Shown one piece after another: positions 59,977 to 64,000 of a stretch of 64,000 bases of DNA. The DNA comes from an uncultured SAR86 cluster bacterium. GTDB lineage: Bacteria > Pseudomonadota > Gammaproteobacteria > Magnimaribacterales > AG-339-G14. The stretch lies in NCBI GenBank assembly GCA_902596665.1, contig CACJUN010000001.1:541083-605082 (forward strand), in the 5' to 3' direction. The notes beneath the pieces are model-generated. The model saw only the letters and a list, made by a program, of their open reading frames with translations. It did no database searches and was not told the origin of the DNA. The stretch's first letter is position 1; each line of letters begins with the position of its first letter. A program made the translations under genes and the position numbers.

Positions 59977-60789
59977 TTGAAAATAGTATCTTTTAACGTC
60001 AATGGAATTAGAGCCAGAATTCATCAACTGGAAAAATTAATAGATAAGCACTCTCCAGATATTATTGGTCTCCAAGAAACCAAAGTTGATAATGAAAATT
60101 TTCCACTAGAGACTATTAAAAATTTTGGCTATGAAGTGATCATTAATGGTCAAAAAGGTCATTACGGAGTTTGCTTGATGTCCAGAAATAAACCTATAAA
60201 TCATGGCATTGGAATGCCAACAGATCCTGAGGATGCTCAATGCAGACTTGTATGGCTAGAATATAAGACAAAAAAAGGTCCCCTGTTTGTATTCAATGGA
60301 TATTTTCCTCAAGGAGAAAGCAGAGATCATCCGATTAAATTCCCCTACAAAGAAAAATTTTATAAAGATCTCATAACTTATCTTAAAAAAGATTTTGATC
60401 CTGAAAGTCATTTAATTGTAATGGGAGATCTTAATATTTCACCTGAAGATATTGATATTGGAATTGGAGAAAATAATAGAAAAAGATGGCTGCAGACTGG
60501 AAAGTGCAGTTTTCTTCCTGAAGAAAGAGAATGGCTAGAAAATTTGAAAGATTTTGGCTTATATGACTCCTACAGATGCCTCTATCCTGAGGAAAACAAC
60601 ACTTTTAGTTGGTTTGATTACAGAAGCAGGGGTTTCGATGACAATCCAAAAAGGGGTCTAAGAATTGATCACTTATGGATTACTAAAAGCTTAAAAGATT
60701 TAATTAGTTCATCTGAAATCGATTATGAAATTAGGGGAATGGAAAAACCTTCTGATCACGCACCAGTTTGGACAAAGTTTAATATTTAG
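59977..60789 (+). CDS. xthA: Exodeoxyribonuclease III
   Basis: SFNVNGIRAR; LQETK; NGYFPQGESRDH; MGDLNI; FSWFDYRS; GLRIDH; SDHAPVW. TTG start. Confidence 0.96.
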   Translation: MKIVSFNVNGIRARIHQLEKLIDKHSPDIIGLQETKVDNENFPLETIKNFGYEVIINGQKGHYGVCLMSRNKPINHGIGMPTDPEDAQCRLVWLEYKTKKGPLFVFNGYFPQGESRDHPIKFPYKEKFYKDLITYLKKDFDPESHLIVMGDLNISPEDIDIGIGENNRKRWLQTGKCSFLPEEREWLENLKDFGLYDSYRCLYPEENNTFSWFDYRSRGFDDNPKRGLRIDHLWITKSLKDLISSSEIDYEIRGMEKPSDHAPVWTKFNI

Positions 60790-61243
60790 ATCTTTTATCT
60801 TTAAAAAAGTTTTTAATTAGCTTTGAGCACTCTCTATCAAGTATCCCGGAACTGATATCTAACTTATGGTTCAACCATCCATTTTCATCTAAATTATTTC
60901 TTGAATTTATGAATCCTGTTTTTTCATCTGAGGTTGCGTACACCAACCTACTAATTCTTGCATGGATAATTGCGCCGGCACACATCATGCAAGGTTCAAG
61001 AGTCACATACAATGTTGTTCCTAAAAGGCGGTAATTATTAAGAACCTTTCCTGCCTCTTTCAAACATAAAATTTCTGCGTGAGCAGAAGGATCGTTTTTT
61101 GTGATTGATAAATTATGCGCTGCAGATAAAACTTCATTATTTTTAACTAATAAAGCCCCAACTGGCACTTCATCTTTTTCATAAGCTAAATTAGCTTGTT
61201 CAAGGGCTTTTTGCATAAAAAATGCATCCGAAAAACCTGCCAT
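60779..61243 (-). CDS. tadA: tRNA adenosine(34) deaminase
   Basis: FMQKAL..A..EVPVGA; DPSAHAEI; LYVTLEPCMMCAGAIIHARI. Confidence 0.94.
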   Translation of the reverse strand: MAGFSDAFFMQKALEQANLAYEKDEVPVGALLVKNNEVLSAAHNLSITKNDPSAHAEILCLKEAGKVLNNYRLLGTTLYVTLEPCMMCAGAIIHARISRLVYATSDEKTGFINSRNNLDENGWLNHKLDISSGILDRECSKLIKNFFKDKRSKY

Positions 61244-61629
61244 CAAGGAAATATTTTTTTAAGCTCTTTGAGAGAAATAAGCATCCCTTGATGAATTCCT
61301 TCGGCGAAGATCTCAGGTTCAATTTCTGTTGTCCAAGAGAATTCACAATTATCATTATCTAAAGAACTTATCTGTATGGTTGCTAAATGATGCTCGATTG
61401 GAGCAGGAGTTTGAATAGCAGAGTACTGAAAAATTTTATTATCGTGATCAATTTTTAAAATTTTTTCTTTTAGCTGTCCCATGCCCTCCATAGAGAAGGA
61501 TCTGACGTCCCCGTCTAAAGAAATCTCTTCAACGGTAGGCACCCAACTTGAATTTGTTGGATCAGAAATAATATCCCAAATCGCTTGTGCATTGACTGGA
61601 AAAATCTCTTTTTCTTTAATTATTTTCAT
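61243..61629 (-). CDS. SRPBCC (polyketide cyclase/START-like) family protein
   Basis: AQAIWDIISD...WVP; VRSFS..LKEKI..DH..FQYS; ATIQI..EFSWT pattern. Confidence 0.82.
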   Translation of the reverse strand: MKIIKEKEIFPVNAQAIWDIISDPTNSSWVPTVEEISLDGDVRSFSMEGMGQLKEKILKIDHDNKIFQYSAIQTPAPIEHHLATIQISSLDNDNCEFSWTTEIEPEIFAEGIHQGMLISLKELKKIFP

Positions 61630-62668
61630 TTAATTCCTTATCTAAAAAAGCCACTACGTGATTATTTACATGAAAATCAGAATCTAATGGCATTATCTCA
61701 TTAAATATTAGTCGTTTTGCAACTCTTACCATAATTACTGAAAACTTAAATAAAGCTAATATCCGATAGTAAGCAAAAAATTCGGATGATAACCCTGTTT
61801 TATTTTCCCAGATTGTCCTACCCTCTTCTTCATCCATAGTTCCTTCTAATTTTGGAACATTCAACGCCAGACTATTTGCATCATCTATTGCAAATCCCCA
61901 TGCTAAATCCATTAAAGGATCACCAAAATTAGCCATTTCCCAATCAAGTAAGGCTTTTGCTGAAAAATTTTCATAAAGAACATTTCCAGGTCTAGCATCG
62001 CCCCAACACAAAGTTTGTTTTTGAAGAGGCGGTTTATTTTTAACAAGCCAATCTAGAGCATTTGAACAAATTTCATGAGGTTCGCCTTCCATGCCCCAAT
62101 TCAAAAAACTTTGATAATAGTCTAAATGCATTCCCAAAGGATCTTCCTCTATGTTAATTTTGCAATCCCTCAATTCATCACTCGAAAATTCTAAATTATG
62201 GAAATGCGATAAATGATCAAGCCATTCCAACCACACCTTATGTCTTTCGGTTGGAGTAGCCCTTCCCATCATTCCTTCCATATCCATATGATACGGAGGA
62301 TTATCACTAGGAGCAGAGCCATTGATGCTTTTCATAATATAAAAACCAGAACCTAAAATATTATCGTCATAATTTTCATAAATAACTTCAGGGGTGAGCA
62401 TATTCTTTCCTCTCAAAACCTTCATTATTGATGCTTGCATGGGCAAGTCGTAATTTGGAAAAACTTGATATTCCGTTGGTTCGAGTCTTAAAACCAGGGT
62501 CTCCTCTGAATCCTCCTTCTCTAAATCAAAAACAAAAGTTTCATTGGAAAAACCTGAAGCCATCGAGGACTCATGAGGAGTTAATTTGAGGGGGCCTTCT
62601 TTAGAGGCAAGCCAATTTTCGAGTTTTTCAATCTTAGATTGAAAATCCTTCTCAGTTGAGACTGGCAT
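61616..62668 (-). CDS. APH/choline-kinase-like phosphotransferase (Rv3168-like)
   Basis: SGFSNETF; LVLR..P..VFP.YDL; LCWGDARPGNVLY (Brenner-type motif); LLDWEMA..GDPLMDLAW. Confidence 0.88.
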   Translation of the reverse strand: MPVSTEKDFQSKIEKLENWLASKEGPLKLTPHESSMASGFSNETFVFDLEKEDSEETLVLRLEPTEYQVFPNYDLPMQASIMKVLRGKNMLTPEVIYENYDDNILGSGFYIMKSINGSAPSDNPPYHMDMEGMMGRATPTERHKVWLEWLDHLSHFHNLEFSSDELRDCKINIEEDPLGMHLDYYQSFLNWGMEGEPHEICSNALDWLVKNKPPLQKQTLCWGDARPGNVLYENFSAKALLDWEMANFGDPLMDLAWGFAIDDANSLALNVPKLEGTMDEEEGRTIWENKTGLSSEFFAYYRILALFKFSVIMVRVAKRLIFNEIMPLDSDFHVNNHVVAFLDKELNENN

Positions 62669-63765
62669 TAGGGTTTATCAAAGAGATCTATAAAGCCACT
62701 TGGTTCATGGGGACCCAATATGAGTTGCTCTAGAACACCCCGACCTATCTTACTTTTATCTCCTATCTTCATCGTCACATTTGAAACAGATTGCACATGC
62801 AGAAAGGGTGGATCTCCAGGGTCATCATTTAAATCATAATCATCAAAATAAGAGGCTAATTCTCCTTTATCATGTCCGTGACCCCACTCAGGGTGCATAT
62901 AACCTAAGCCACACATAAAAACCTGCATACCACAATCAATTGAAATTGTTATGGGTTTAGCTTGATCATCTGTTCCAGATATGTCCATTTTTTTTACTCT
63001 TCTGGAGCCAGGATGATAAGAAACAGATTTTTTAATGTCTTGAATTATGAATTCATCTTCGTACTCAGGACCTTGTGCAATAGCAATCGTTGAGCTGGCA
63101 TTACCCTTCTCGTCTTCGACAAAATAAATATGTACTGCTGAATCATCAAAGTGAATTGGAGCCCATAACCAATAAAACTGCGGCATTGAAAAAGGAACCA
63201 TTGGTTGACTATCGTAAGCTCCAACGGGCCTAACGCCCCAAGATCTATCCCTTGTTCCTATAAAAGAATCATTATCAAGACTAATCTCATTTTTATTATG
63301 AACAATTTTTCCAGACCATGATCCTTGCTGCGTCATTCTGCATGTATCCATAATCATTCTTGGTCCATTGAAAAGTTGCATTTGGGGTTCTCTCATAGGA
63401 GCAAATCTACTTGTAAATTCTATAGACACGTCTAGGTCGTTTTCTACGTCAGCGAGTGTGACTTTGAGTTTATTAAGTGGTTCTATTACCTCCACGCTTA
63501 AAGGACCTACCTTGGTGTCAAGACGTTCTAAGTTCAGATACCTAGATACTCTTGAATTATATTGTTTACCTTCATATGCAAGAGTAAATGAGCCATCCAT
63601 AATATTAAGATTTGGATATACACACAAAACAGCACCGAAGTAAATGTCCTCATCTTTTGAATATCCATTAAAAAAATATCTATCATAAAAATTTCTTTCG
63701 GTTCCTGTTTCAGCAACTGGTTTTGAAATCTGATGGATTGGAAAATCGTCGGCTTTTGTAATCAT
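62668..63765 (-). CDS. Conserved protein of unknown function (Rv3169-like, possibly tocopherol-cyclase-like beta fold)
   Basis: DDFPIHQ; RNFYDRYFFN; YPNL; EVIEPL; GSWSG; GTRDRSWGVRPVG; FYWLWAP; HPEWGHG; GPHEPSGF. These motifs match the Rv3169 family as recalled. Confidence 0.72.
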   Translation of the reverse strand: MITKADDFPIHQISKPVAETGTERNFYDRYFFNGYSKDEDIYFGAVLCVYPNLNIMDGSFTLAYEGKQYNSRVSRYLNLERLDTKVGPLSVEVIEPLNKLKVTLADVENDLDVSIEFTSRFAPMREPQMQLFNGPRMIMDTCRMTQQGSWSGKIVHNKNEISLDNDSFIGTRDRSWGVRPVGAYDSQPMVPFSMPQFYWLWAPIHFDDSAVHIYFVEDEKGNASSTIAIAQGPEYEDEFIIQDIKKSVSYHPGSRRVKKMDISGTDDQAKPITISIDCGMQVFMCGLGYMHPEWGHGHDKGELASYFDDYDLNDDPGDPPFLHVQSVSNVTMKIGDKSKIGRGVLEQLILGPHEPSGFIDLFDKP

Positions 63766-63767
63766 AA

Positions 63768-63998
63768 TTAGAAAATTTTTATTTTTGCAATATCTAGCTC
63801 TACCTCGTGATCTCTTCCATAAGCTTCAATCCCAAGAAGTTTTATTTTTTTTGGATTTATGGATTTATTGAAAGTCCTACTATTACTGTACCCAACAAAG
63901 TCTTCAATATTTAGAACGTATTCTTTCCAATCTTTTCCAACTTTGAATTCTTTAAGATGTCTGACCCACGGTAAAACTTGCCCCCTCGACTTAATATG
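63768..63998 (-). CDS. CIA30-family (complex I intermediate-associated protein 30-like) protein, C-terminal part; start outside the window
   Basis: Manual translation HIKSRGQVLPWVRHLKEFKVGKDWKEYVLNIEDFVGYSNSRTFNKSINPKKIKLLGIEAYGRDHEVELDIAKIKIF*. The LPW..F...W....DF...I..LGI.A pattern fits this family. Confidence 0.62.
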   Translation of the reverse strand, partial: HIKSRGQVLPWVRHLKEFKVGKDWKEYVLNIEDFVGYSNSRTFNKSINPKKIKLLGIEAYGRDHEVELDIAKIKIF

Positions 63999-64000
63999 AA

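Follow-up and report, generated by a model that had tools for sequence, protein, structure and literature searches.

A pair of adjacent minus-strand genes from an uncultured SAR86 cluster bacterium is likely to encode a two-enzyme module for the ATP-dependent dehydration of a hindered alcohol to an alkene. The pair lies near the end of a 64,000-nucleotide stretch of DNA, here called the window, which covers C1:541083-605082 of a SAR86 assembly of 1.28 Mb (35% GC, 14 contigs, 94% complete). It is embedded in a string of five minus-strand open reading frames (ORFs) with almost no spacer between them (60779-64000), encoding a CIA30-like protein, a 365-aa protein, an APH-fold kinase, an SRPBCC protein and TadA. 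The 365-aa protein is a homologue of 25-phosphosteroid lyase (25-PSL) by sequence and fold, and the kinase is likewise homologous to 25-hydroxysteroid kinase (25-HSK). In Sterolibacterium denitrificans, cholesterol-derived intermediates are phosphorylated by 25-HSK at their tertiary 25-OH, and elimination of the phosphate by a separate C-O lyase then yields the delta-24 alkene, in sum an ATP-dependent dehydration (PMC7411048; PMC8449060; PMC11061730). By inference from these homologues, the same chemistry would operate in the SAR86 pair. The two genes are as follows:

62668..63765, minus strand: Rv3169-family protein and 25-PSL homologue, 365 aa (NF053593, PDB 9fzn, AlphaFold model); predicted phosphate-eliminating C-O lyase
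61616..62668, minus strand: APH-fold small-molecule kinase of the 25-hydroxysteroid-kinase/Rv3168 subfamily, 350 aa (PF01636, 9fsg, 3ats, Foldseek)

In the proposed mechanism, the APH-fold kinase, a cytoplasmic enzyme, would use ATP to place its gamma-phosphate on a sterically hindered and most likely tertiary hydroxyl group. This group would belong to a hydrophobic molecule similar to the side chain of a sterol or isoprenoid. Elimination of the phosphate by the Rv3169-family lyase would then leave a C=C double bond, so that an alcohol that cannot be oxidised would become an alkene usable by ordinary oxidative or beta-oxidation enzymes.

Sequence and fold of the two enzymes

An initial annotation of the window, made from the letters of the sequence, had pointed to a close resemblance of the two proteins to the M. 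tuberculosis pair Rv3169 and Rv3168, and database searches bear this out. The 365-aa protein matches the NCBIfam model NF053593 ('Rv3169 family protein') with 330.8 bits against a cut-off of 150 (E = 8.8e-99), and the alignment runs end to end, with residues 3-349 of the protein corresponding to positions 2-350 of the 351 in the model. The same protein has no match in Pfam. Its closest sequence match in the PDB is the 25-PSL entry 9fzn (4.8e-44, 36% identity over 309 columns), one of three 25-PSL entries (9FZN, 9G2I and 9G4C) released in January 2026. Foldseek places the AlphaFold model of the protein (pLDDT 82, pTM 0.85) with 9g4c, 9fzn and 9g2i at TM scores of 0.83-0.86 and E values of about 3e-29. 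The next folds, those of kievitone hydratase, AttH and fungal Diels-Alderases, lie far behind, with TM scores of about 0.5 and E values of about 1e-10. The protein thus has the AttH/hydratase type of fold that the initial annotation had considered, with 25-PSL as its nearest structure.

All of the short motifs quoted in the initial annotation are located in the two proteins. In the lyase, FPIHQ begins at residue 8, RNFYDRY at 24 and RDRSWGVRPVG at 172. Within the last of these, residues R172-D173-R174-S175-W176-G177 do not vary among nine diverse homologues and 25-PSL. Entry 9g4c, titled '25-PSL + phosphate + desmost-1,4-diene-3-one', carries an Asp-to-Asn change relative to 9FZN within the G-S-R-D-R-S-W-G motif, and the residue concerned, Asp173, is retained in the SAR86 lyase.

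The kinase belongs to the APH family (PF01636, 4e-19). Its best PDB match is 9fsg, a structure of 25-HSK (4.7e-36, 29% identity), followed by 3ats/3ATT, the structures of Rv3168 (2e-23); the identity of 3ATS as Rv3168 is confirmed by a review and by the title of the Foldseek entry. Foldseek gives the same order, with 9ft5 and 9fsg ('25-hydroxy steroid kinase') at a TM score of 0.78 and 3ats ('Rv3168') at 0.74. The catalytic loop WGD224ARPGN229 is present (WGDARPGN at 222), as is the metal site D242-W-E244 (DWEM at 242). The usual lysine of the F/Y-x-K motif is replaced by Arg61, with LVLR61L aligned to VGRL of 9fsg and VARV of 3ats, and such an arginine has been described for Rv3168 (PMC3691515). 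The kinase domain of ACAD10/ACAD11 (PDB 8V3U/8V3V) is a further detectable relative (7.6e-07).

An APH domain can also suggest that the kinase is an aminoglycoside or macrolide resistance phosphotransferase with an unrelated gene as its neighbour, and Rv3168 itself was first described as a putative aminoglycoside resistance enzyme (PMC3691515). The models for characterised resistance enzymes, however, score far under their cut-offs (APH(3') 25.2 versus 205 bits; Mph(C) 16.1 versus 550 bits), the nearest structures are 25-HSK and Rv3168 while the resistance enzymes APH(3'), APH(4) and APH(9) reach TM scores of at most 0.5 (0.4-0.5), and most related loci have a kinase gene linked to that of the lyase, as detailed below. 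A role in resistance is therefore very improbable, in agreement with the initial annotation.

Linkage of the pair and exchange of the kinase

The lyase and kinase genes overlap by one base in the sequence TAATG. Conservation of this linkage is assessed in 80 loci encoding relatives of the lyase (41-99% identity), taken from contigs of one genome per species; locus numbers such as L001, which lies in the genome of the window itself, refer to numbered stretches from these contigs. An APH-fold kinase starts on the same strand within 60 bp downstream of the lyase in 72 of the 80 loci, lies somewhat further away in two and is absent from six. A phylum-wide survey uses an even sample of 400 genomes from 212 genera, with 1.5 kb of flanking sequence inspected for each match. 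The lyase family occurs in only 13 of these genomes (12 of the 212 genera), and a kinase lies within 1.5 kb in nine of the 13 matches, in two cases on the upstream side, which is also the M. tuberculosis order. Of 15 genomes from the window's genus, 14 encode the lyase; elsewhere in the order it is patchy. In the control search, Caulobacter vibrioides also scores above the family cut-off. Lack of similarity to Rv3168 and Rv3169, or rare co-occurrence of the two genes, had been named beforehand as grounds for abandoning the comparison with M. tuberculosis; the similarity is significant and the kinase is as a rule directly downstream, and retention of the pair across lineages thus holds as first proposed.

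Three subfamilies can be told apart among the partner kinases. Type A, which resembles 25-HSK and Rv3168, occurs in the clade of the window and in a single OCS116 genome. Type B, a plain APH kinase with the motif HGDYRxGN, has 3DXP, Rv3168 and ACAD11 as its nearest structures and accompanies the lyase in the other SAR86 clade and in the majority of the alphaproteobacteria. Type C belongs to the ecdysteroid-kinase-like family (EcKL, PF02958, 9e-17) and occurs in Halioglobus and sphingomonads (L039, L040, L054, L062, L070, L071, L082, L090 and L091). Across these subfamilies the lyases remain 41-56% identical to the window protein, while the kinases fall to 13-26% identity. In a FastTree phylogeny of the lyase, read without consideration of branch support, lyases with type A and type C partners form nested clades in a type B background, and the window's clade is the sister of the type B SAR86 clade. 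This nesting, together with the faster divergence of the kinase, suggests from the sequences that the kinase was replaced during evolution while the lyase was kept.

Several side observations concern the same loci. A helical protein of about 149 aa is encoded directly after the type B kinase in 36 of the 80 loci (L028:7651-8100; for example also L029-L038 and L041-L044). It spans SAR86, Parvibaculum, Rhizomicrobium, Desulfobacterales and others, has no Pfam family, and takes the slot held by the SRPBCC gene in the window's clade. In a related genome of the same family (L018, G017:C1:523889-524930), the lyase gene is split into ORFs of 135 aa and 236 aa, which points either to a frameshift or pseudogene or to an assembly error. 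Two apparent lyase fusions, of 938 aa (L096) and 637 aa (L105), are rejected as open-frame artefacts in high-GC DNA, with the true starts at MLTKADDYPIHQ and MALTAGDDYPLHQ, respectively.

Predicted reaction and substrate

The near-universal adjacency of the kinase speaks for a phosphorylated intermediate as the substrate of the lyase. The next-closest folds, kievitone hydratase and AttH, also count in favour of tertiary-alcohol dehydration: kievitone hydratase forms a tertiary alcohol by adding water across a prenyl C=C bond. Several points weigh against the kinase-lyase dehydration proposed here. Identity to the characterised enzymes is modest (lyase 36%, kinase 29%), and at this level substrate specificity is not transferable from the S. 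denitrificans enzymes. The only characterised pathway context of the pair, anaerobic sterol degradation, is missing from this genome: a search for molybdopterin enzymes (PF00384) finds none in the 94%-complete assembly and matches 11 of 14 control genomes, so the molybdenum-dependent C25/C26 hydroxylases, and with them the anaerobic sterol pathway, are absent. No KshA-type Rieske oxygenase is found in the genome, and no steroid-ring catabolic cluster is recognised in a search limited to Rieske proteins, one acyl-CoA dehydrogenase (ACAD) pair and the neighbourhood of the cytochrome P450 gene; sterol utilisation by this genome is thus not supported. Finally, the 25-HSK and lyase genes are not adjacent in S. 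denitrificans (PMC8449060). Two candidates for sterol catabolism are rejected: the sole Rieske oxygenase of the genome (C6:9552-10742) is GbcA/BenA-like, and the ACAD pair at C1:335649-338036 is PimC/PimD-like and below cut-offs.

Clues to the substrate come from cytochrome P450 genes. The sister SAR86 clade has a string consisting of peroxiredoxin, P450, lyase, kinase and the 149-aa helical protein. A P450 gene immediately precedes the pair in two Halioglobus loci and 11 other SAR86 loci, and lies nearby in three Parvibaculum loci. The best PDB matches of this pair-adjacent P450 are CYP125MRCA (a reconstructed ancestral CYP125), the CYP153 alkane hydroxylases, CYP126 and CYP124, followed by CYP125; CYP124 is a methyl-branched lipid omega-hydroxylase and CYP125 a steroid C26-monooxygenase. 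The genome of the window contains a single P450 (458 aa), which is 41% identical to the pair-adjacent enzyme and has CYP125MRCA as its best PDB match (1e-81).

This P450 gene is part of a same-strand trio at C1:404059-407057, about 134 kb upstream of the window, with genes for a DUF1295 protein (1e-43) and a member of the 3-oxo-5-alpha-steroid 4-dehydrogenase family (3e-50). The trio may serve in sterol or polyprenol tailoring. An AMACR-like family III CoA-transferase is encoded about 8 kb away.

No squalene-hopene cyclase and no squalene/phytoene synthase is found in the genome, which makes an endogenous hopanoid, sterol or carotenoid substrate unlikely. Since these enzymes and the molybdenum hydroxylases are all missing, the substrate is probably a hydrophobic alcohol, sterol- or isoprenoid-like, that is scavenged from outside. 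The narrower proposal that the substrate is specifically a C25-hydroxysterol is possible but doubtful. Under it the pair would be a strict orthologue of the Sterolibacterium step, turning C25-hydroxysterols (25-hydroxycholesterol-type oxysterols or their 3-oxo derivatives) into delta-24 sterols at the entry to side-chain degradation in SAR86, and in this strict form it is again rather unlikely. 25-PSL and 25-HSK are the best solved relatives of both proteins, the pair adjoins the P450 described above in other lineages, the related P450 of the window's genome adjoins a steroid-5-alpha-reductase-family gene, and Bergstrand et al. predict steroid catabolism in three SAR86 draft genomes (PMC4810484). 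Against this stand the lack of a molybdenum hydroxylase to make the 25-OH, a Rieske oxygenase that is not KshA-like, the identities of only 29-36%, and the pairing of the lyase with three kinase subfamilies, which suggests several substrates across the family.

A different possibility is that the same folds follow another logic, in a biosynthetic or unrelated reaction. An allylic phosphate might, for example, be ionised and the product cyclised or rearranged, or a hydratase or cyclase might ignore the product of the kinase. The superfamily of AttH, kievitone hydratase and the Diels-Alderases performs diverse carbocation and pericyclic chemistry, and the low identities to characterised enzymes do not fix the substrate. 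The adjacency of the kinase nevertheless argues for a phosphorylated intermediate, the Asp motif mutated in 9g4c and many Arg and His residues are invariant from SAR86 to 25-PSL, and the genome lacks isoprenoid-derived secondary metabolism as judged by the searches for squalene-hopene cyclase and squalene/phytoene synthase. Such a departure from phosphorylation followed by elimination is improbable.

Operon partners and related systems

The remaining genes of the five-gene string are the following:

63768..64000 (runs off the window end), minus strand: CIA30-domain gene, 3' part (full gene L001:3851-4375, 174 aa, PF08547 at 6e-19)
61243..61629, minus strand: SRPBCC (Polyketide_cyc2) small ligand-binding protein, 128 aa (PF10604 at 2.3e-11)
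60779..61243, minus strand: tadA, tRNA adenosine(34) deaminase (NF008113 at 3e-57, 193 bits versus cut-off 150)

The initial annotation had listed the junctions of these genes as evidence of translational coupling, and each is exact in the sequence. The CIA30-like gene and the lyase gene meet as 'TAA tt ATG' with a 2-bp gap, the kinase and SRPBCC genes overlap by 14 bp (61616-61629), and the SRPBCC and tadA genes are translationally coupled through TGATG. The same five-gene string is kept in two genera of the window's family and in eight of the 80 loci (L019-L027 and L045), and this conservation places the arrangement beyond chance. The GC content of the operon region equals that of the rest of the genome, which gives no sign of recent transfer. 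A scan of the region for promoters and terminators shows no excess over shuffled sequence (30 versus 25.8 +/- 5.1 and 7 versus 4.5 +/- 2.4, respectively) and so gives no guide to the ends of the transcript. An exodeoxyribonuclease III-like gene, xth (59977-60789, plus strand), converges on tadA, and their 3' ends overlap by 11 bp (60779-60789), which fits the extreme compaction of the genome.

The SRPBCC protein gives weak PDB matches to uncharacterised SRPBCC proteins alone, and its gene adjoins the pair only in the window's SAR86 family. SRPBCC proteins as a class bind hydrophobic ligands, which makes a carrier role plausible; by analogy the protein may hold the hydrophobic substrate or product. 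The CIA30 domain PF08547 is matched with the full-length 174-aa gene only, and the 76-aa fragment inside the window gives no match. The CIA30 protein has a clear N-terminal signal peptide (N-terminus MRFILFFLPLISISVYSV), which separates it from the enzymes of the cytoplasm and makes direct cooperation unlikely; in this very compact genome, the exported protein probably just shares the transcript. The tadA gene is most likely a passenger in the operon. It is an essential housekeeping gene, and its translational coupling implies constitutive transcription of the whole string, provided that no internal promoter serves tadA.

Upstream of the CIA30 gene, at a distance of 20 nt and on the same strand, lies a gene for a family III CoA-transferase (L001:4396-5622, window-equivalent 64313-65539), with which the same transcript may begin. 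Its best PDB match is succinate--hydroxymethylglutarate CoA-transferase (9BR7, 4e-37). 3-Hydroxy-3-methylglutarate is a tertiary alcohol, and no evidence is found that ties it to the kinase-lyase pair. Further upstream are genes for a cupin, a carboxyltransferase, an amidase, an epimerase-like glyoxalase-fold protein, an enoyl-CoA hydratase and a short-chain dehydrogenase/reductase.

The closest characterised system is that of S. denitrificans, comprising 25-HSK (SDENChol_21286; 9FSG/9FT5/9FU5) and 25-PSL (9FZN/9G2I/9G4C). The catalytic loop, the Arg-for-Lys replacement and the Asp of the RDRSWG motif are common to both systems, and the predicted net reaction, dehydration of a tertiary alcohol via a phosphoester at the expense of ATP, would be the same. 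The SAR86 genes are adjacent and translationally coupled, whereas S. denitrificans has no lyase candidate near its kinase gene (PMC8449060). The SAR86 host is aerobic and streamlined and lacks molybdopterin enzymes, and thus has neither S25DH nor S26DH, and the operon partners SRPBCC, CIA30 and TadA also differ.

The M. tuberculosis pair Rv3168-Rv3169 likewise combines an adjacent APH-fold kinase, with Arg in place of Lys, and an Rv3169-family protein. The order is reversed there, with the kinase first, and the operon is repressed by the dedicated TetR regulator Rv3167c (PMC5340868), whereas no regulator is seen at the SAR86 operon.

Two further systems are related in part. ACAD10/ACAD11 follow a similar logic, in which a hydroxyl is phosphorylated and phosphate is eliminated to give a double bond in a lipid (4-hydroxyacyl-CoA). 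Their APH-like kinase domain is related to the window kinase but is fused to an ACAD domain, and it is this ACAD-fold domain, rather than an AttH-like lyase, that performs the elimination; the substrate is a secondary alcohol on an acyl-CoA, and the whole reaction is carried out by one polypeptide. Proteins of the kievitone hydratase/AttH/CrtC-type fold, the next after 25-PSL, interconvert isoprenoid C=C bonds and tertiary alcohols, but they use no ATP or phosphoester, work in the hydration direction and share about 10% sequence identity with the lyase.

These comparisons revise part of the initial annotation. The pair had been called an orphan, a description that no longer applies because its homologues are characterised as a 25-hydroxysteroid kinase and a 25-phosphosteroid lyase. 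It had also been taken to point to an undescribed two-step pathway, for instance one with a lipid or aromatic acyl substrate. The combination of a kinase with a hydratase/AttH-like fold and a lipid-like substrate stands; 'undescribed' does not, as the chemistry is published for 25-HSK (PMC8449060) and the lyase is solved (9FZN, 9G2I, 9G4C). The host was correctly recognised as a streamlined marine gammaproteobacterium. Each protein passes the family tests that were run, and with the molybdenum enzymes absent the pair lies outside the anaerobic sterol pathway as a whole. By analogy with S. denitrificans, the operon would represent known kinase-lyase chemistry in a new physiological setting, that of an aerobic, streamlined ocean heterotroph.

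In this setting, the module may be a constitutive salvage route for 'dead-end' tertiary alcohols from scavenged isoprenoid lipids, feeding alkenes to a CYP125-like P450 and to beta-oxidation, a tentative suggestion and a rather unlikely one. Candidate substrates would include C25-hydroxysterols and tertiary alcohols that arise from photo-oxidation, autoxidation or off-target P450 hydroxylation. If this were true, the module would stand beside the anaerobic sterol cascade as its oxygen-tolerant equivalent, the range of substrates would depend on which of the three kinase subfamilies is present, and the proposal would extend to the many actinobacteria and alphaproteobacteria in which the pair occurs.

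To date, the removal of tertiary hydroxyls by a kinase and a lyase is characterised from a single denitrifying sterol degrader. Well-conserved and closely linked copies are present in SAR86, among the most abundant bacteria at the ocean surface, and in many alphaproteobacteria with an aerobic lifestyle, and a CYP125-like P450 is often their neighbour. This distribution suggests that the pair is a general oxygen-independent tool against recalcitrant isoprenoid and sterol alcohols and not a speciality of anaerobes. It gives a candidate function for the 'Rv3169 family', which in NCBIfam release 20.0 (June 2026) is named after the gene only, and for the neighbouring kinases, long misannotated as 'aminoglycoside phosphotransferase-like'; the M. 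tuberculosis pair Rv3168/Rv3169 is among the proteins concerned.

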